Shown here: piece after piece, positions 4,079 to 9,993 of the stretch
Numbering within the stretch: the first letter of the stretch is position 1
Layout: each line of letters begins with the position of its first letter
Assembly (NCBI GenBank): GCA_031255495.1
Contig: JAIRSK010000020.1
Coordinates: 9,367-73,366, forward strand
DNA from: Candidatus Endomicrobiellum devescovinae
GTDB lineage: Bacteria; Elusimicrobiota; Endomicrobiia; Endomicrobiales; Endomicrobiaceae
Reading direction: 5' to 3'
Length of the DNA stretch: 64,000 bases
Program-made: the position numbers and the translations under genes
Notes under the pieces: model-generated
Seen by the model: the letters and a program-made list of their open reading frames with translations, nothing else
Database searches by the model: none
Told to the model about the DNA's origin: nothing

Positions 4079-4256
4079 TGCAATTTAATTCTATGAAAAT
4101 ATTATAATAAATTTGCATATCAAAAGATAGAATAGAGTTGAATGATCCTACCTTTACAATTCCAGAGCTTCTTTGGCAAATTATGGATTTTAGGTTAAGT
4201 TAGGGTTATGCACGTTAAAATAACCAATTTCTACAGGTTTTGCTTACAAATAATAA

Positions 4257-4293
4257 GTTAGGGGTTGTCCCTCCAAATTTGATTTGGTAGAAT
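4257..4293 (+). repeat. CRISPR repeat R1 (cas-distal), carries a complete promoter-like motif
   Basis: GTTAGGGGTTGTCCCTCCAAATTTGATTTGGTAGAAT. Contains TTGTCC (4265-4270), a 17-nt spacer, then TGG-TAGAAT (4285-4293, extended -10-like). Internal hairpin CCAAAT-TTG-ATTTGG. Confidence 0.65.
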
Positions 4294-4362
4294 TGAAAAG
4301 AAGACCTAGATGATAAAATACATGGGGACATTTTGTCCTTAAATAAAAATAAGGAGCTTAAC

Positions 4363-4491
4363 ATGAAAAAATTTTTTGTATTAAGTTTTTGTTTCGTATT
4401 ATTCTTACCTTTTTTATTTAAATTTCTTTCAGGTGATGGTAGGTGCGGTTCATGGTGTGTTGATACTGGAAACACCTGTATTTGTAATTAG
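4363..4491 (+). CDS. 42-aa signal-peptide-bearing Cys-rich peptide (bacteriocin-like or small membrane toxin-like)
   Basis: Too short for the ORF track. AAGGAG (4352-4357) sits 5 nt before the ATG. Sequence MKKFFVLSFCFVLFLPFLFKFLSGDGRCGSWCVDTGNTCICN has a K-rich n-region, a hydrophobic core, and a C-terminal 18 aa with 4 Cys. Confidence 0.5.
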   Translation: MKKFFVLSFCFVLFLPFLFKFLSGDGRCGSWCVDTGNTCICN

Positions 4492-4493
4492 CC

Positions 4494-4682
4494 ATGGTTA
4501 TTGACGATACTTTACCTATAACTATTCGGAGCGCAATAGCGTCGGGCATTGTTACAACGGCAATATTGTGGGTAGGAACAAAATGGAACGAATTTTGGCT
4601 ATGGATTATATACATTATAGTATTAGCACAAATCTTTACAATATTATATTTTGGATACATTGTTATAAAAGGAACTATATGA
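4494..4682 (+). CDS. 62-aa two-TM membrane protein (possible immunity or partner protein)
   Basis: ATG lies 2 nt after the stop of the preceding peptide gene, suggesting coupling. Two hydrophobic helices (AIASGIVTTAILWVG, FWLWIIYIIVLAQIFTILYFGYIV). No family recognised. Confidence 0.45.
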   Translation: MVIDDTLPITIRSAIASGIVTTAILWVGTKWNEFWLWIIYIIVLAQIFTILYFGYIVIKGTI

Positions 4683-4718
4683 GTTAGGGCGGTATCGCCT
4701 ATACACATGTGGCTGTGT

Positions 4719-4754
4719 GTTAGGGTTGCCCCCCCAGATTTGATTTGGTAGAAT
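4719..4754 (+). repeat. CRISPR repeat R2 (cas-proximal)
   Basis: GTTAGGGTTGCCCCCCCAGATTTGATTTGGTAGAAT. Contains TTGCCC (4726-4731), 17 nt, then TGG-TAGAAT (4746-4754). Has a C7 homopolymer at 4729-4735. Confidence 0.65.
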
Positions 4755-4761
4755 ATCAGAT

Positions 4762-4886
4762 ACAGATTGTCGTCTAAGATGTTTAAGAATTTTTTAGAAA
4801 AAATGCCAAATCAGAGGCTAAGATTGAGGGCTTTCTTAAAAATTTTTAAAATTTAAAAGGGGTAACTCTAATAAGAGTTTTTTCGT
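4762..4886 (+). ncRNA. candidate small RNA from the R2 promoter to a weak terminator; weak tracrRNA candidate
   Basis: Predicted start about 7-9 nt after the R2 -10 box. AUGCCAAAUCA (4803-4813) is complementary to the repeat 3' part UGAUUUGGUA, and GAGGG (4826-4830) to CCCUC. Hairpin AACTCT-AATA-AGAGTT (4864-4879) is followed by a T-run. The repeat 5' third stays unpaired, so the assignment is weak. Confidence 0.3.
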
Positions 4887-4920
4887 AAGATGCTGGTTTT
4901 TACCAGTTCAAAGAAGTTTT

Positions 4921-5247
4921 TTAAAGAAGCGCGTCAAAAAAATCTGGTTGTTTAGGCTCGACTTTTAGTCTGCCATATAAATGCTTTGTCATCTTAAACA
5001 TTCTGTCTGTAAAGAACAAAAGACATATGTGTCCGTTGTCAGGTACGATTTGCTTAATTTGTTTTTCAATAAAATCGCATCTTTCCTTGCTAAAAGCATA
5101 ATAACTATAGACAGATTTTTGCAACATGATAAATCCTGCATTTTTTAATCTTTGTCTAAAGTTGTTAGCAATTCGCATTTGAGTTTTTGTTTTTACAGGC
5201 AAATCAAAAGCAACCAAAATCCACATTGTTTTATATTGAGAAATCAT
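4921..5247 (-). CDS. cas2: CRISPR-associated endoribonuclease Cas2
   Basis: 108 aa; MWILVAFDLPVKTK...QKSVY Cas2 beta-strand motifs; start overlaps the cas1 stop by 4 nt. Confidence 0.9.
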   Translation of the reverse strand: MISQYKTMWILVAFDLPVKTKTQMRIANNFRQRLKNAGFIMLQKSVYSYYAFSKERCDFIEKQIKQIVPDNGHICLLFFTDRMFKMTKHLYGRLKVEPKQPDFFDALL

Positions 5248-6137
5248 CTAAAAATTTTTGGCAAATTTATTTTTTCTTCTTGAATTAGAAAATAGACATA
5301 TGATTGAACATATCTTTGAATTCCTGCTGTAAAATTGAACGCTCCATCTTCAAAATATAAATTACTTTCTATTACGCTTGCTATATATTTTTTTGTCTGA
5401 GGCGTTAAGTCTTTTTCTTGTTTAAAAGGTTCAAGTTTGCTTTTTACCATAAAATCTATAATTGGACGAAACGGTTCCATTAAATCGTCAATTAAACAAA
5501 ATGGGTTGTGGTTTTTGCTGTGAAAAATACCAATAGCAGGATTAAGTCCGGCTGAAACAACCGCTCTTGCCATGCTGCTTCTAACTATCGCATAGCCGTA
5601 ATTTAACGCTGAATTTATAAAATCTCGCCCATTGGAACTTCTATAAAAATTAAAAAATAAATTTTCAAAATAGATCTTTGCGCCGATGCCTTCCTTAAAA
5701 GACGCATCGCCAGAACGAACCTGTTTTGCCATAGCAAAAATTGTTTCAGCCGCTTTATCTATGCCAAAAATTTTTAATACTTCGGCTTGATTATTTAATT
5801 TGCTTGTAATTATTTGTTGCCACGCTTGTTTTATTTTAGGTTTAGATGAATTTATTTGCAGTTGTAATCTTTGCCCGTAAATATTTGTAGTCCAAAACGA
5901 TAATAACATTCCAGCAGGCATATAAGTCTTATCGCAGAAAATAATAGGAACTTTATGTTCTAAACATTTTTGTATGCAAGAATTGGTAATCGTAATATTG
6001 TTTCCGTAAAGTATAATTGTATTTATATCGTCAAATAAACAATGCAATTTTTCTTGATTGTCTTTTACAGCGGAAAAATTATTGTTTTTAACGCATAAAT
6101 GATAACCATCTCCGCTAATGTCCAAAATTTTCCACAT
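5244..6137 (-). CDS. cas1: CRISPR-associated endonuclease Cas1 (type II)
   Basis: 297 aa; follows cas9 by 1 nt. Cas1 C-terminal catalytic region NSALNYGYAIVRSSMARAVVSAGLNPAIGIFH...NPFCLIDDLMEPFRP. Confidence 0.93.
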   Translation of the reverse strand: MWKILDISGDGYHLCVKNNNFSAVKDNQEKLHCLFDDINTIILYGNNITITNSCIQKCLEHKVPIIFCDKTYMPAGMLLSFWTTNIYGQRLQLQINSSKPKIKQAWQQIITSKLNNQAEVLKIFGIDKAAETIFAMAKQVRSGDASFKEGIGAKIYFENLFFNFYRSSNGRDFINSALNYGYAIVRSSMARAVVSAGLNPAIGIFHSKNHNPFCLIDDLMEPFRPIIDFMVKSKLEPFKQEKDLTPQTKKYIASVIESNLYFEDGAFNFTAGIQRYVQSYVYFLIQEEKINLPKIFR

Positions 6138-6138
6138 T

Positions 6139-9100
6139 TTATTTGCCTTTATTTTTTAGTATTGGCGAATAGTATTTTATAAGTCCGCAAGGGCTTAAAA
6201 TAACTTTTCTAGGATTATATTTTTGCATTGAATTTAGATTAAACGAATCATATGGCTTATATGAACTTTTTATTATATTGCTAAACCAAAGTTGAATATT
6301 ATCATTTTCAACTTCAGTGAAAGTATTAACTCTAATAAAAGTTCCATCTGGAAGAGCAGAACCACATCTATTTTTTAAAGATACTTTATCATTTATAGTA
6401 TAATCTAGTTCTAAAATATCTCCTCCATAAATTCTTTCAAACAATTTAAATTCTTGCTCTTTATATTTAGGCTTAATTTTTTTCTGAGCACCAATTTTTC
6501 TTATAATTTCTCCGCAAAGTTTGTTTTTATTGTAATACAAATCTATGCATAAACTATCGCCAGTATCATATCCGTATCCATATTGTTTCTCTTTTGGTTT
6601 GGAAATAGCAAAAAATTTGCTTGGTTCCTTTTTAGAAAGTTGCACATAAAACTTATTCGGCAACAAAGAAATGGCTTTTTTATATATGTTGGCATCGTCC
6701 ACTTTACATTCTTTCTTCCTTTCGGTTTTCGCTTTTTTATTTTCTTCTTCAATCAATTCTTTAGCTTCTTTAAGATTTCTTTGTATATCTTCAAATAGTT
6801 TTTTATTATTAACAACTTCTTTTTTTATTTTCTCATTTTTTAATTCGTTTTGTTTTCTTTCAAATTTTAAAAGAGCAGTTTCTAAAATTTCTTTTGGAGT
6901 TTTTTTCTTATCTATTAATTTTATTTCGCTTAACGATTTGCGGGCAGTTAAAATATACTCATCACTTGAATTATAAACTTTATACATTGTTGCTTTTAGA
7001 AGTTCGCCGTTATTATTATGATCGTGCTTAATGCTGATAAAAGAGTCTTTTAATGCTTGGTTTATAGAATTTTTAAAAGATTCTAATTCTAAATTATTTG
7101 GAGGAATTAAAATTTTAGAAAGCCAATTTTTATCTCTATAATTTATTTTATATCCTTGTCCGGCTAGCTTATTTAATAAATTGCCGTAACCTCTTGAAGC
7201 AAATGCTATAACTATAGCGTCTAACGCATGGTGTCTGTTATCTAATCTAATTTTTTTGTTTTTATTAACATCATCTTGAAACTTTTCTAATTCCTTATCA
7301 GATAGCAATTTTTCTGCAAAAGGGATTAGTAATCCTGATAATCCCCACGCTAAGCGCAGTTGAGCCGTCAAAGAGCCTTTAACACAAATTATATTTGGCT
7401 TCTCAAATAAGCATGAGAGATGTTTATGTGCGATTTTAGAGATATAAGAATTGTCTGTTTCAAATCTCTTTTTCATAGGCTTGTTTTCTATAAATTTTTC
7501 AAAAACTCCTTGATAAAAGCGCCAAGCTTTTTTAGGAAGATTCTTTTTAGCATTTGCAAGTATTTCGTTATAATTGTATTTAATATCCCCAAATTTTGGC
7601 GATGATCCGAAAGCGTTAAAAGGCGACTGCTTGCCTTTATTTTCATTACAGCTTGTATGCGAAATAACACGATTGTTCCTTGTATTATCTTCACTTTCAG
7701 AAATAGGAAATAAATGCTCTATATCAACTTTATTATTTATAATATCGTTAGCATTTATTTGCTGTAAACAAAATGGACAGATCTGATTTTGTTCTTCAAA
7801 TAAGTCAAATTTTAAAATATAGTTTTTTGGATTTTCATTTCTTGTTTTTATAGTTTGTTGGTGCTTTTCTATATACTCTTTATAAATTCTATTCCTCTCC
7901 GTTTCGTTATGGCTTTGCTCATTACTTAATTGCAACCTATCTTTAGCAGATTTTTTTAATTCTTTTGCAGTTTCCAAACCTATCTCTACAGGTTTCTTAC
8001 CAAAAATTTCTATAATTTCATTAACTAATTTGCGAAGCTCGTTTAGTGTTTGATGGACTACGGGATTTGCAATTCTTCCATAGTTTAATTCGTCTTTATT
8101 TGTATAAGGTGTTTTATATTTTCTTTCAGCAAATTGCTTTGAAAAACCTTTTGCAATTACTGCTTGCGTGCTTTCAGGCAAAACGGTACCATAATAAGGC
8201 AATTTGTCTTTAACAGATTGTTTGTCTTTTGTTAACTTACCTTCGTTTAAAGCTTCTTCTATTGCTTCTGTATAAGATAAACCATCTTTTATTTTCTCTA
8301 AAACTATTTTCATAGCGCTTTTGCCAACTGGCGCATATGAAGATGCTAGCACAAGTTTATCAAAAGCTTCATCTATTTCTTTGTCCGATAATTTGTATTC
8401 CTTTTTGAGTTTATCTTTCAAACTTTTTTCATCTGGACAAGAATTCCAATCGTATAAAAAGTGATCTTGTTGCTGTCCAGAAAATCTTTCCCAAAATGGC
8501 ATATCTTCCAGCACGCGTAATTTATAACCTTTTATTTTTTGTGTCTTTTTATCTCTTCCCTGTAGAGCAATATCTTGAGAGTCCACATTTTCTAACTCTA
8601 ACAATTTTTGTGTTTGTGATTGCGTTAATTCTTTTCCCGATAAAAGATGTGCAAATAATTTTTCTTTTTGTTCTTTTGAAAACTGTTTTTCTTCATAATT
8701 TGTAATTTCACCTGTGTCTTTATCAACAATAGCCTGCGAATATCTTGCATTATTTAAAGCTTCCCAAAGACGACGTTCTTCATTTAACTTATGGGAGCGA
8801 GGCAAGCGTTTTTCATTTTTAAAATATGGACAACATCTACTTTCAGGTATTAACTTTTCCGTTTCGTAATTTATCGCTTTAACAATTTGCTCAATATAAT
8901 CGTTAGCTAATTCTTTATAATATTGCGCTTGATTATTTAAAATTGATTGCGTTTCTTTAATTGTAAAATCTCTTGCGGGAAAAAATTGATGATTATCTGT
9001 AGCGTTGCTCACTTTTTCTCTTTTATGTTTTTCTTTGTTTTCAAATTTTTCTCTGTAAAGATATTCGCCGTAAGTTCTATAATGCTTCTCTTTCATTATT

Positions 9101-9678
9101 TGTCCAACACTTTTGGCTATTTTTTTATTTTTCGTATTTTCTTTTTGAGTTTCTTCAGAATCTTCTTCAAAAGTTCTTATTGCAGAAGAACCTCTATGAT
9201 TTGCGATATGGTATAAAGCATATCCTATTTCTTGCAGAGATAATTTTTCGTCAAGAGCCTTAACTCTTAGTTCATATACATCTTTTTGTAAAACTCCTAC
9301 AGGAAATCTTTTAGAAGAAGTTTCCTGATCCGATGAATTTTCTTTTTTGTCTAAATTATTTGGAACAGGTAAAGCTAACTTTTTAGATGCTAAAAGTTTC
9401 CATAAATAACGCATTCTTTCTCTAGTATGTCTATGATTATTCCTTTGCCCTCTTTGCATTCTTCTATTTATAGCACCATCAGACGCTTTGAAAATTCTTG
9501 AGCCGTTCATTATTATTTCTTTAGGTAACAAATTTTTCTCTGAGTTTTTTTCCATAGACACTATCGCAAAGCCTATGGAACCCACTCCTAAGTCTAGCCC
9601 TATACGATAATCTCTATTTCTTAATTTTTCTTTTATTTGCGCTAAATATTTCAGATAAATTTGATTTTTTGATTGCAT
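6139..9678 (-). CDS. cas9: Cas9, type II-C architecture (no csn2 or cas4 in the operon)
   Basis: 1179 aa. RuvC-I YRIGLDLGVGSIGFA (D29). Arg-rich bridge helix RRMQRGQRNNHRHTRERMRYL. HNH DIEHLFPISESEDNTRNNRVISHTSCNENKG. RuvC-III NRHHALDAIVIA. ATG preceded by AGGAAGGGA. Confidence 0.95.
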   Translation of the reverse strand: MQSKNQIYLKYLAQIKEKLRNRDYRIGLDLGVGSIGFAIVSMEKNSEKNLLPKEIIMNGSRIFKASDGAINRRMQRGQRNNHRHTRERMRYLWKLLASKKLALPVPNNLDKKENSSDQETSSKRFPVGVLQKDVYELRVKALDEKLSLQEIGYALYHIANHRGSSAIRTFEEDSEETQKENTKNKKIAKSVGQIMKEKHYRTYGEYLYREKFENKEKHKREKVSNATDNHQFFPARDFTIKETQSILNNQAQYYKELANDYIEQIVKAINYETEKLIPESRCCPYFKNEKRLPRSHKLNEERRLWEALNNARYSQAIVDKDTGEITNYEEKQFSKEQKEKLFAHLLSGKELTQSQTQKLLELENVDSQDIALQGRDKKTQKIKGYKLRVLEDMPFWERFSGQQQDHFLYDWNSCPDEKSLKDKLKKEYKLSDKEIDEAFDKLVLASSYAPVGKSAMKIVLEKIKDGLSYTEAIEEALNEGKLTKDKQSVKDKLPYYGTVLPESTQAVIAKGFSKQFAERKYKTPYTNKDELNYGRIANPVVHQTLNELRKLVNEIIEIFGKKPVEIGLETAKELKKSAKDRLQLSNEQSHNETERNRIYKEYIEKHQQTIKTRNENPKNYILKFDLFEEQNQICPFCLQQINANDIINNKVDIEHLFPISESEDNTRNNRVISHTSCNENKGKQSPFNAFGSSPKFGDIKYNYNEILANAKKNLPKKAWRFYQGVFEKFIENKPMKKRFETDNSYISKIAHKHLSCLFEKPNIICVKGSLTAQLRLAWGLSGLLIPFAEKLLSDKELEKFQDDVNKNKKIRLDNRHHALDAIVIAFASRGYGNLLNKLAGQGYKINYRDKNWLSKILIPPNNLELESFKNSINQALKDSFISIKHDHNNNGELLKATMYKVYNSSDEYILTARKSLSEIKLIDKKKTPKEILETALLKFERKQNELKNEKIKKEVVNNKKLFEDIQRNLKEAKELIEEENKKAKTERKKECKVDDANIYKKAISLLPNKFYVQLSKKEPSKFFAISKPKEKQYGYGYDTGDSLCIDLYYNKNKLCGEIIRKIGAQKKIKPKYKEQEFKLFERIYGGDILELDYTINDKVSLKNRCGSALPDGTFIRVNTFTEVENDNIQLWFSNIIKSSYKPYDSFNLNSMQKYNPRKVILSPCGLIKYYSPILKNKGK

Positions 9679-9917: not shown

Positions 9918-9993
9918 AAAAAAAAAAAAATAGAAAATCTAGTATCTATAAAATTATTGTTCAGATATACTCATGTATGGCTGTGTATGAGTA
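9918..9993 (-). terminator. trp operon 3' region: hairpin plus T13 tract
   Basis: Minus strand has TACTCAT-N12-ATGAGTA (9968-9993), then a weak ATAGA..TCTAT hairpin directly followed by T13 (A13 on the plus strand, 9918-9930), downstream of the trpA stop. Confidence 0.35.

Follow-up and report, generated by a model that had tools for sequence, protein, structure and literature searches.

The only inter-repeat interval of a near-empty type II-C CRISPR array in “Ca. Endomicrobiellum devescovinae” (positions 4294 to 4718, 425 bp, between the repeats R1 and R2) holds an operon of small proteins. The stretch analyzed, called the window throughout, comprises 64 kb of contig JAIRSK010000020.1. We think it probable that these 425 bp are the reduced copy, kept by the window strain, of a small operon restricted to Endomicrobium and lodged in the sole spacer slot of a decayed array. 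The products of the operon would be a peptide of 18 to 22 residues with four cysteines behind a Sec-type signal (ORF-A) and, in addition, one or two very small membrane proteins (ORF-B and ORF-C), and the array would have lost all its other spacers, with the operon filling the single slot. The features of the locus are the following (window coordinates, strand).

4183 to 4198, plus: remnant of an antitoxin gene, ATGGATTTTAGGTTAA, the 3′ end of an HI1420-type gene; the window has lost the remainder of the toxin-antitoxin module
4199 to 4256, plus: partial repeat GTTAGGGTT and 49 nt of unique sequence, in the window and L011 only
4257 to 4293, plus: R1, GTTAGGGGTTGTCCCTCCAAATTTGATTTGGTAGAAT, 37 nt, the upstream and oldest “extra” type II-C repeat
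4265 to 4270, 4285 to 4286 and 4288 to 4293, plus: R1 promoter elements from the promoter scan, −35 TTGTCC, TG and −10 TAGAAT
4294 to 4362, plus: 5′ UTR, between R1 and the ATG of ORF42
4311 to 4319, plus: second −10-like box, TGATAAAAT, in the 5′ UTR
4326 to 4338, plus: hairpin GGACA-TTT-TGTCC, in the 5′ UTR
4351 to 4356, plus: ribosome-binding site (RBS) AAGGAG, six nt upstream of the ATG at 4363
4363 to 4491, plus: ORF42, the window's allele of ORF-A, 42 aa, predicted signal peptide MKKFFVLSFCFVLFLPFLFKFLSG and then DGRCGSWCVDTGNTCICN; stop TAG at 4489 to 4491
4494 to 4682, plus: ORF62, equal to ORF-C, 62 aa, starting 2 nt past the ORF42 stop
4683 to 4718, plus: truncated repeat GTTAGGG and a spacer-like insert of 29 to 30 nt, CGGTATCGCCTATACACATGTGGCTGTGT (52% GC), in the window and L011 only
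4719 to 4754, plus: R2, GTTAGGGTTGCCCCCCCAGATTTGATTTGGTAGAAT, 36 nt, the downstream repeat, nearest the cas genes and the leader-like region
4726 to 4731 and 4749 to 4754, plus: −35 and −10 of the R2 internal promoter, same layout as in R1
4755 to 4858, plus: leader-like region between R2 and the tracrRNA, conserved in an alignment of three Endomicrobium species
4824 to 4852, plus: promoter-like site TTGAGG-17-TAAAAT from the promoter scan, inside the leader-like region
4859 to 4922, plus: candidate tracrRNA, with anti-repeat GGGGTAACTCTAAT (4859 to 4872), stem-loop (4892 to 4906) and T-run (4917 to 4922)
4921 to 5247, minus: cas2, intact, Pfam CRISPR_Cas2 match
5244 to 6137, minus: cas1, intact, Pfam Cas_Cas1 match
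6139 to 9678, minus: cas9, intact, Pfam HNH_4 and RuvC_III matches

The CRISPR-Cas set is made up of cas9, cas1 and cas2 only, without csn2 or cas4, as in type II-C systems, and its neighbors are trpA and an M23 peptidase gene. Instead of an array with repeats separated by spacers of ca. 30 nt, there are two full repeats, 461 nt apart, and at most one spacer-like unit of 29 to 30 nt (4689 to 4718). No further CRISPR array was found elsewhere in the 64-kb window, and sister strains have one or two repeats each. The same layout, through R2, is present in an independent assembly (L011, from SRR14710884). The candidate tracrRNA region, with its putative anti-repeat, is conserved across three species, and the terminal stem has one compensatory change (C-G to U-A) between the window and L001/L002. 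The predicted duplex of R2 with the anti-repeat reaches −26.8 kcal/mol, versus −10.0 ± 3.0 for shuffled repeats; the predicted pairing of R1 with the tracrRNA is weaker (−19.3 kcal/mol). Rfam gave no family match across the whole window. On the other side of the array, L003, L007 and L020 have an intact 114-aa antitoxin gene, matching TIGR02684/PF21716 and ending ...GMDFRLS* at the point of the window's remnant.

R1 and R2 differ by three substitutions and one indel, and a sigma-70-like promoter was scored in both (TTGTCC or TTGCCC, 17 nt, TG-n-TAGAAT). The related functional array of L002, with 15 repeats, has the same layout (TTGCCC-17-TGnTAAAAT). Since type II-C repeats carry a promoter of their own, as documented in Neisseria meningitidis and Campylobacter jejuni (PMC5965381), R1 most likely transcribes the operon. 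An intrinsic-terminator-like site was sought on the plus strand between R1 and R2 and none was found; the transcript would enter R2 because nothing terminates it earlier. The operon is therefore placed directly 3′ of a predicted repeat-borne promoter and 5′ of a repeat predicted to pair with the tracrRNA. The second −10-like box in the 5′ UTR might replace the −10 of R1, and there is a weaker promoter-like site inside the cassette (4623 to 4650). The window-type UTR is conserved in L003 and L007, while those of L013 and L015 differ from it and have a longer hairpin. All 12 repeat copies recovered from these strains keep the 3′ TTTGATTTGGTAGAAT unchanged, with positions 21 to 36 invariant, and the approximately nine independent changes all fall at positions 1 to 20. 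This pattern is not specific evidence for the recruitment of R1 as a promoter because the same clustering is general in type II-C arrays, where mutations gather in the first 15 to 20 nt of the upstream “extra” repeat (PMC12080349).

A preliminary description of the locus had located R1, R2 and the 425 bp between them at the positions given above. It had also read from the interval a 42-aa ORF (RBS AAGGAG, start at 4363, hydrophobic N terminus and four cysteines) and a 62-aa ORF with two transmembrane segments (4494 to 4682), both in the direction of the R1 promoter with no terminator before R2. We found all of these again. By hydropathy, ORF42 has one hydrophobic segment (residues 1 to 25), and ORF62 has a weak one (9 to 25) and a strong one (32 to 59). 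When the 425 bp were shuffled 5000 times preserving dinucleotides, a non-overlapping pair of plus-strand ATG ORFs of at least 62 and at least 42 aa appeared in 0.06% of cases. Among the six frames, ORF62 scores best for codon usage, at a value close to the 5th percentile of real genes. The codon-usage score of ORF42 is poor (−0.34 per codon), with another frame scoring better, and this ORF is absent from the gene-caller predictions on record.

In other Endomicrobium strains, a cassette of three overlapping ORFs (A, B and C) is found exactly between two repeats. That of L013 has the three ORFs intact between two full repeats, forming a “spacer” of 562 nt in which the stop of ORF-C abuts R2. Six alleles of ORF-A were recovered (window, L003, L007, L013, L014 and L015), with the motif [DN]x[KR]CGx(1-2)Cx(6-8)CIC. 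The framework C, G, C, C, I, C is kept across all of them, while the loops and even the signal peptide vary, and five of the six invariant residues show synonymous codon variation (TGC/TGT, GGT/GGC, ATT/ATC). The window allele is the most divergent and is without the terminal GxW; in the sister strain L003, one cysteine has been lost (C27Y). The alleles have a K-rich N terminus, a hydrophobic core of 17 to 25 residues (mean Kyte-Doolittle hydropathy, 2.2 to 2.4) and small residues preceding the predicted signal junction (LSG/D, VGA/D, FGA/D, LSS/N), where a putative Sec-type signal peptide would be cleaved. The predicted mature peptides have 18 to 22 residues, four cysteines and a net charge of −2 to +2, being mostly acidic or neutral. 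In a diderm bacterium, a Sec-exported peptide gets no further than the periplasm.

The constant partner of ORF-A in the relatives, missing from the window allele, is ORF-B, a 52-aa protein with one hydrophobic segment. Its four alleles (58 to 96% identity) all keep this segment, the motif LFGYGL..DV..G.YKEY.KHK and a GTG start that overlaps the end of ORF-A. ORF-C overlaps or abuts the preceding ORF. ORF62 is identical in L003 and differs by four amino acids from the version of L013 (three synonymous and four non-synonymous changes, pN/pS of 0.39, approximately 4% nucleotide divergence). Across the comparisons of cassette ORFs, pN/pS ranges from 0.14 to 0.69, with substitution counts too few for a significant dN/dS test. 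Conservation of the two ORFs in relatives had been put forward as a check on the preliminary description: the ORF-A and ORF-B families are conserved, and three allele contexts have an intact ORF-C, against two with a broken one (frameshifted and truncated in L007, degenerate in L014). No second copy of the cassette exists in the 64-kb window. The neighborhood of the cassette family contains toxin-antitoxin, restriction-modification and CRISPR genes.

The conserved families ORF-A and ORF-B are both confined to Endomicrobium. When 5.8 billion and 1.8 billion proteins were searched, the only matches, besides spurious repeat proteins, were the cassette proteins themselves or relatives on Endomicrobium-like termite-gut contigs. 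For ORF62, only its own cluster was found among the 5.8 billion proteins. The matches of ORF42 among the 1.8 billion representatives were multi-repeat proteins and a beta-trefoil-like CADEGN motif, all judged spurious, and a match on a viral contig (L004) was a high-GC chance match to DGRCGSWC. Sequence searches against Pfam, NCBIfam, PADLOC, PHROGs and PDB chains gave nothing meaningful (the best was DUF983, E = 0.11), and no sequence or profile similarity of the cassette proteins to bacteriocin, immunity, toxin or defence families was detected in these collections. Two scans of a metagenome collection (ORF42 plus ORF62, and an ORF-B profile) found nothing; this collection is evidently without the JGI termite samples holding the relatives. 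Phage and plasmid collections had no match to positions 4150 to 4950. The pair had been said to look like a bacteriocin/immunity cassette or a small membrane toxin with a partner, and part of this stands: the architecture resembles a secreted peptide with a membrane partner, and ORF-B and ORF-C provide the small membrane-protein neighbors of a bacteriocin-type cassette, with a putative immunity role, but similarity to known families is lacking. A toxin/immunity-like role for a polymorphic, predicted secreted peptide and its membrane partner can be suggested only tentatively.

Among the strains, the cassette and the cas genes have been gained and lost independently of each other. L013, in which the tracrRNA, cas2, cas1 and cas9 are deleted, keeps R1, intact ORF-A, ORF-B and ORF-C, and R2. 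L003, also without cas genes, keeps R1 and both ORFs, and its R2 is decayed but recognizable (shuffle P = 0.003). Conversely, L005, L006, L008 and L020 have cas genes (with a split cas1 in L006 and L008), one repeat and no cassette. The single repeats of L020 and L005 are chimeric, with an R1-type SNP (GTTAGAG) and an R2-type C-run and flank, indicating that the cassette was deleted by recombination between repeats. In L007, the cassette, with intact ORF-A and ORF-B, lies beside a split cas9. Finally, in L014 and L015 the operon is found outside the CRISPR locus, with no cas genes on their contigs. The sequence upstream of these two cassettes is in the right register for a repeat vestige, with a similarity to the repeat that is not significant (P about 0.2), so the operon can evidently exist without a full repeat. 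Type II-C loci that are decaying or missing have already been reported among genomovars of “Ca. Endomicrobium trichonymphae” (Izawa et al. 2016, PMC5174739).

Of the two interpretations offered in the preliminary description, its null hypothesis of a cassette within a decaying array gives the best fit, as cassette and cas genes vary independently. We refine it in that the arrangement is old, located exactly between repeats and originally made up of three ORFs. The cassette would function independently of Cas9, persisting after cas deletion and being lost via R1 × R2 recombination where cas remains. The other interpretation, offered as speculative, coupled the stability of the mRNA to the processing of R2 by the CRISPR machinery, with a resemblance in concept to CreTA. 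In the form weighed here, a toxin peptide would be controlled by Cas9, tracrRNA and RNase III at R2, or by a crRNA-like guide, and the loss of cas would be penalized. In the window, the intact cas genes and tracrRNA and the position of R2 at the predicted 3′ end of the transcript, where it would pair with the anti-repeat at the energy given above, are compatible with such coupling, and the C27Y change of L003, the sole cas-less strain with a window-type allele, is readable as toxin inactivation. However, the strain distribution goes against it: L013 and L003 retain the module after cas loss, which is not the behavior of an addiction module, four strains have cas without the cassette, ORF-A and ORF-B are intact in L007 despite the split cas9, and the operons of L014 and L015 are away from any cas genes on their contigs. 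The only candidate guide consists of the 30 nt that precede R2. With either strand of positions 4150 to 4400, which include the operon promoter and UTR, it has at most 5 consecutive nt in common, and the best 12-nt seed has four to five mismatches, so the complementarity of a CreTA guide was not found. Moreover, the 36-nt unit before R2 is limited to the window lineage. These comparative data largely refute CreTA-like guarding, which we consider very improbable, and exclude an obligatory dependence of the cassette on the CRISPR machinery. As a negative result, the population data show that the cassette is not a type II counterpart of CreTA.

A looser connection could be imagined in cas-positive strains, where a chimeric mRNA/pre-crRNA starting at R1, coding for the peptides and ending in R2 would be cut by Cas9, tracrRNA and RNase III, setting the 3′ end of the mRNA. 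Such a transcript would be the main expression route for the window's sole spacer-like unit because the truncated repeat before this unit has lost its own promoter, although the weaker promoter-like site at 4623 to 4650 might also serve it. We regard this as quite doubtful. If true, a CRISPR repeat would have been recruited as a protein-gene promoter that strains without cas still retain (L003, L013), and in those with cas the production of guides would be physically linked to the expression of the peptides.

The absence of ORF-B and the high divergence of ORF-A suggest that the window allele may be partly degenerate. It might even be a decaying relic, i.e., a drifting, non-functional remnant of a once functional A-B-C cassette, with ORFs that are open from recency alone. 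The loss of ORF-B and of the GxW tail, the C27Y change of L003, the disruption of ORF-C in L007 and L014, the deletion of the cassette in four strains and the poor codon score of ORF42 all point in this direction, and the defence loci of Endomicrobium are known to decay quickly (PMC5174739). The intact ORFs shared by the window and L003 are uninformative here because the two are only about 0.5% apart. On the other hand, the junction left by the loss of ORF-B preserves the ORF42 stop, the ORF62 ATG 2 nt downstream and an intact RBS; ORF62 is still intact in L013 at the divergence mentioned above, and the window allele still has the four cysteines and the CIC although its loops have diverged heavily. 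We consider a dead relic unlikely and prefer to see in the window a reduced copy of the operon.

Two partial-repeat units, unmentioned in the preliminary description, flank the cassette, one just upstream of R1 (4199 to 4256) and the other forming the last 36 nt of the “spacer” (4683 to 4718). Both open with the first 7 to 9 nt of the repeat. In L003, L007, L013, L005 and L020, the sequence ...GGTTAA runs directly into R1 or the single repeat, without the 4199-to-4256 unit. No protospacers for the 29-nt and 49-nt inserts were found in viral contigs or in the fetched loci of relatives, and the 4199-to-4256 unit had no match in phage, plasmid or viral collections. New spacers enter type II-C arrays at the downstream end (PMC12080349), and the position of the unit before R2 fits this polarity. 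Off-ruler integration by Cas1-Cas2 at the 5′ edge of the repeat, with a short target-site duplication, was also considered for both units and dropped for the one before R2 because polarity explains it more simply, by a spacer acquired in the normal way, after which the older repeat lost 29 nt.

The operon itself may have arrived through the repeats, either as a mobile element, now decayed, that integrated site-specifically in a repeat or as an aberrantly long “giant spacer” inserted by Cas1-Cas2. This origin is compatible with the reduced-operon reading. There is a precedent in phage PhiAP1.1, which integrates in type II-A repeats via an 8-bp core (bioRxiv 10.1101/2020.10.09.333658). In L013, each edge of the cassette coincides exactly with a full repeat and no spacer remnant is recognizable, and the partial units of the window could be footprints of an attachment site. 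Besides, in all three of its different genomic contexts the cassette has a toxin-antitoxin module of the HI1419/HI1420 type as a neighbor, and this suggests a mobile island. Nevertheless, none of the loci showed an integrase, a transposase or a partner for an attachment site, and nothing similar appeared in phage, plasmid or viral collections. The first nt after R1 and the last before R2 could be remnants of spacers, so the exact boundaries of the cassette are unprovable. To our knowledge, no spacer of hundreds of bp exists in type II systems. Entry by way of the repeats seems to us rather improbable.

The cassette represents an unannotated family in which four-cysteine peptides, predicted to be exported, are paired with very small membrane proteins; it occurs only in Endomicrobium symbionts of termite-gut protists. 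The family shows swapping of alleles in the mature peptide and may take part in interactions between strains, or directed at the host, within an intracellular symbiosis. Sec-dependent small bacteriocin/immunity pairs and small disulfide-rich exported peptides, such as the heat-stable enterotoxin, are classes for comparison. Like them, the cassette combines a predicted N-terminal Sec-type signal, a short cysteine-rich mature peptide and adjoining genes for tiny membrane proteins, with translational coupling and allelic diversity concentrated in the mature peptide. Unlike them, it has no family similarity, its peptides are mostly acidic or neutral, its vicinity has no genes for export or processing, and the bacterium that carries it is a diderm symbiont living inside cells.

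As to its position between repeats, PhiAP1.1 of Streptococcus pyogenes is a whole prophage with an integrase that splits the repeat at the 8-bp core (bioRxiv 10.1101/2020.10.09.333658). Both cases have foreign DNA between type II repeats, often in arrays cut to one or two repeats, but here the cassette is only 0.4 to 0.6 kb, has no recombinase, is flanked by two complete repeats and is conserved across strains. CreTA modules, toxin-antitoxin RNA pairs under CRISPR repression, guard type I cas genes; their repeats flank a pseudo-spacer that directs the effector to the toxin promoter, which is thereby repressed (PMC8501985, PMC9458426). As in CreTA and cr-like regulatory RNAs (bioRxiv 10.1101/2023.03.03.530964), degenerate repeats by the cas genes flank a non-ordinary spacer, with a potentially toxic small product nearby. 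However, in Endomicrobium it is the genes that lie between the repeats, the promoter has no matching guide, and strains can lose cas with the cassette left intact (L013, L003).

A parallel in layout is found in the type II-C arrays of N. meningitidis and C. jejuni, which have a promoter in each repeat (Zhang et al. 2013, Dugar et al. 2013, reviewed in PMC5965381). The window shares with them the cas9-cas1-cas2 operon, an array transcribed toward the cas genes, a candidate tracrRNA with an anti-repeat and a 36-nt repeat ending in the extended −10 box TGnTAGAAT, together with the mutated upstream “extra” repeat of type II-C arrays (PMC12080349). In contrast to both species, the Endomicrobium array has at most one genuine spacer, and some strains keep the repeats without any cas genes; the persistence of the arrangement in strains without Cas9 adds a further outcome of CRISPR array decay. 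Were R1 confirmed as the operon's promoter, Endomicrobium would offer a clear example from nature of protein-coding genes placed under the control of a recruited CRISPR repeat: where the repeat promoter of N. meningitidis and C. jejuni is followed by a 30-nt spacer, here it is followed by 389 to 562 nt with an RBS and two or three proteins.

One small operon (here the cassette, with genes ORF-A, ORF-B and ORF-C) was located exactly between two type II-C CRISPR repeats, R1 upstream and R2 downstream, wherever both sides persist, i.e., in the window and at loci L007 and L013 of its relatives. Since a decayed R2 is still recognisable at a further locus, L003, this arrangement must be older than the divergence of these strains. 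The window comes from an Endomicrobium genome (Elusimicrobia), and at species level its Cas1 is nearest to those of “Ca. Endomicrobiellum porotermitis” (90%) and “Ca. Endomicrobium neocapritermitis” (77%), both represented by MAGs.

CRISPR-Cas locus around the cassette in the window
4257-4293, read on plus: R1 repeat, 37 nt, downstream of cas2
4294-4718, plus: sequence between R1 and R2, 425 bp
4719-4754, plus: R2 repeat, 36 nt
4755-4858: conserved leader-like stretch, from R2 to the tracrRNA
4859-4872, plus: candidate tracrRNA anti-repeat, GGGGTAACTCTAAT
about 4892-4922, plus: candidate tracrRNA terminal stem-loop with T-run
4921-5247, minus: cas2
5244-6137, minus: cas1
6139-9678, minus: cas9

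The predicted duplex of R2 with the anti-repeat has -26.8 kcal/mol (-10.0 +/- 3.0 for shuffled repeats), and that of R1 is weaker (-19.3). No further CRISPR array and no match to Rfam families were found in the 64-kb window. The leader-like stretch, ca. 100 nt, is strongly conserved in three Endomicrobium species (L001 and L002 carry the equivalents), e.g., TTAAAAATTTTTTAGAAAAAA, and probably holds the promoter of the tracrRNA along with a type II-C leader or acquisition site; a 5'-extended tracrRNA is also possible, since R2's own promoter points into this region. The C tract within the repeat, where most substitutions fall (e.g., at 4729-4735 in the window and about 770-780 in L020), has between 6 and 11 C depending on the strain and may be a slippage hot spot or partly an assembly artefact. 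Type II-C systems decay rapidly in “Ca. Endomicrobium trichonymphae” genomovars (PMC5174739), and the window locus fits this picture. The trp operon genes beside the cas locus decay too in sister strains: in L013 (7554-8608) a chorismate-binding (trpE-like) gene is fragmented and the genes from there to the cassette are deleted, and in L007 (437-1214) trpA is split.

The layout of the operon given in the preliminary description was recovered in full. The AAGGAG ribosome binding site is at 4351-4356, ORF42 (the ORF-A allele of the window) at 4363-4491 and ORF62 (its ORF-C), 2 nt past the ORF42 stop, at 4494-4682, both co-oriented with the R1 promoter, and no plus-strand terminator-like site was found before R2. 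By hydropathy, ORF42 has a single hydrophobic segment, residues 1-25, and ORF62 has two, at 9-25 and 32-59. A comparable ORF pair appeared in 0.06% of dinucleotide-preserving shuffles, and an independent assembly, L011, is identical to the window through R2. The top promoter-like site of the region, TTGTAA-16-TATAAT (10/12), lies on the minus strand inside ORF62 (4614-4641) and would yield RNA antisense to ORF62 and ORF42; in DNA this rich in AT, promoter-like matches are frequent (7 found, 4.8 expected).

Termite-gut metagenomes, MAGs and SRA assemblies, searched for relatives with profiles and by exact-protein look-up, provided fifteen further loci (L005 to L020 without L012), with L010 and L016 duplicating the contig of L003, L017 that of L005 and L019 that of L006. 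Their flanking genes are 98 to 99.7% identical to those of the window.

Arrangements of the cassette and its repeats
Type i (window, L011): cas intact, R1, ORF42, ORF62, truncated repeat plus 29 nt, R2
Type ii (L007): cas9 split, antitoxin gene intact, R1, ORF-A allele, ORF-B, frameshifted ORF62 shortened by R2
Type iii (L013): R1, ORF-A, ORF-B, intact ORF-C, stop codon abutting R2
Type iv (L003, L010, L016): no cas, R1, ORF42 with C27Y, identical ORF62, R2 heavily decayed (P = 0.003)
Type v (L005, L006, L008, L020): cas and tracrRNA, single repeat, no cassette; cas1 split in L006 and L008
Type vi (L014, L015): ORF-A and ORF-B in other genomic contexts, next to toxin-antitoxin and restriction-modification genes; ORF-C degenerate or absent

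The ORF-A of L007 has the signal peptide of the window and a different mature peptide (DDRCGVCRYDSDLGRCICGNW), followed by the additional ORF-B (51 aa, one hydrophobic segment). In L013 the signal peptide itself differs (DGKCGEVCRWDDFLNRCICGEW) and ORF-C is ORF62 with four amino acids changed. In L003, 236 bp of unrelated sequence (6190-6425), with a 34-nt inverted repeat, now occupy the site of the cas genes and of most of R2; L014 and L015, the island contigs, share short matches with this sequence, which suggests that cas was lost by recombinational replacement and not by simple deletion.

The preliminary description had speculated that processing of a transcript ending in R2 would couple the cassette to the CRISPR machinery, similarly to CreTA, a CRISPR-repressed toxin-antitoxin RNA pair guarding type I cas genes. 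The operon, the promoter position and the predicted transcript end stand, but the coupling does not: in all the combinations observed, the presence of the cassette is independent of that of the cas genes. The most telling case is L013, where a deletion beginning 43 nt past R2 has removed the tracrRNA, cas2, cas1, cas9 and part of the trp operon, and the cassette with both repeats is wholly intact. Neither the operon promoter nor its UTR is complementary to the only candidate guide in the window (the 30 nt before R2). Taken together, these sequence comparisons contradict both a CreTA-like guard and an obligatory dependence on Cas9. Closest to the truth is the null hypothesis of that description, a cassette inserted into a decaying array, with the refinement that the arrangement is conserved and the repeat promoter probably drives the cassette. 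The single repeats of type v combine the R1-type substitution GTTAGAG (as in L007 R1) with the R2-type C-run and downstream flank, a chimera that reads as the signature of R1 x R2 recombination deleting the cassette.

R1 and R2 both carry TTG(T/C)CC, 17 nt, TG-n-TAGAAT, a layout found also in the functional 15-repeat array of L002 and like the repeat-borne promoters described for the type II-C arrays of N. meningitidis and C. jejuni (PMC5965381). That R1 probably drives the cassette is supported by its complete set of -35, TG and -10 elements 70 nt ahead of the ATG, by the invariance of the 3' sixteen nt of the repeat (TTTGATTTGGTAGAAT, identical in 12/12 copies, with about nine independent changes in positions 1-20) and by the retention of R1 in two cas-less lineages. 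However, type II-C arrays in general have mutations of the upstream “extra” repeat clustered in its first 15 nt (PMC12080349), the 5' UTR contains another -10-like box (TGATAAAAT, 4311-4319), and the L014 and L015 copies do without a recognisable repeat (no significant similarity upstream, P about 0.2).

Two partial-repeat units had been overlooked. At 4683-4718, only in the window lineage, GTTAGGG is followed by 29 nt at 52% GC. Type II-C arrays gain spacers at the transcription-downstream end (PMC12080349), which here adjoins the leader-like region and tracrRNA, and so the best reading of the unit is that a normal spacer acquisition took place once the cassette was there, and that a deletion of 29 nt then took away the greater part of the older repeat, its promoter included. 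The spacer-like 30 nt (4689-4718) are absent from the other cas-positive strains. Their 3' nine nt (TGGCTGTGT) recur on the plus strand at 9978-9986, inside a small palindrome between trpA and cas9, about 300 nt upstream of the cas9 start (10/12 nt match); such a match occurs in 0.04% of shuffles of this 359-nt region, a comparison made after the match was noticed. The other unit (4199-4256), directly upstream of R1 and only in the window and L011, consists of GTTAGGGTT, the first 9 nt of the repeat, and 49 nt of unique sequence; no match to it was found anywhere, and it misfits a 36+30-nt repeat-spacer unit.

Among the relatives, the ORF-A and ORF-B families are conserved, whereas ORF-C is less secure as a gene. 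The pN/pS values of all comparisons, 0.14-0.69, come from very few sites. The six ORF-A alleles vary in loops, length (18-22 residues) and even signal peptide, and C, G, C, C, I and C are invariant except for C27Y in L003, with synonymous codon variation at 5/6 of these residues. This pattern is of the kind that selection on a disulfide or metal-binding framework would give. None of the four ORF-B alleles (58-96% identity) has lost the hydrophobic segment or the motif LFGYGL..DV..G.YKEY.KHK, and each begins with a GTG that overlaps the ORF-A end. An intact ORF-C occurs in three contexts and a broken one in two, and one context lacks it; window and L013 differ in ORF-C by 3 synonymous and 4 non-synonymous changes (pN/pS 0.39), and its codon-usage score is the best among six frames, yet at the low edge of the real-gene range. 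The window cassette lacks ORF-B, elsewhere the constant companion of ORF-A, and its ORF-A is the most divergent allele (shorter loop, no GxW tail), so this version is derived and possibly weakened. No homologues of the cassette proteins were found outside the Endomicrobium clade or in any family library.

An HI1419/HI1420-type toxin-antitoxin module adjoins the cassette in all three genomic contexts.

Sites of the toxin-antitoxin module
Window 4183-4198: only 16 nt left
L003 5300-5769: toxin truncated
L020 786-1429: intact, 100-aa toxin and 114-aa antitoxin
L014 5511-6217
L015 4096-4767

The deletion junction CAAATT|ATGGATTTT is common to the window, L005, L006, L008, L011 and L013. The constant company of module and cassette suggests that the cassette is part of a mobile island; no recombinase was found on the loci examined. 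Phage PhiAP1.1 is a precedent for mobile DNA integrating into type II repeats; the cassette, 0.4-0.6 kb, may have come to its place exactly between two repeats in a similar way. From its architecture, a toxin/immunity-like role can be proposed tentatively, as a rather doubtful option: a Cys-rich, predicted exported peptide is accompanied by one or two tiny co-translated membrane proteins, and window and L007 have exchanged mature peptides downstream of a 5' region that is conserved, which, like the degenerate ORF-C left behind, resembles polymorphic toxin/immunity loci.
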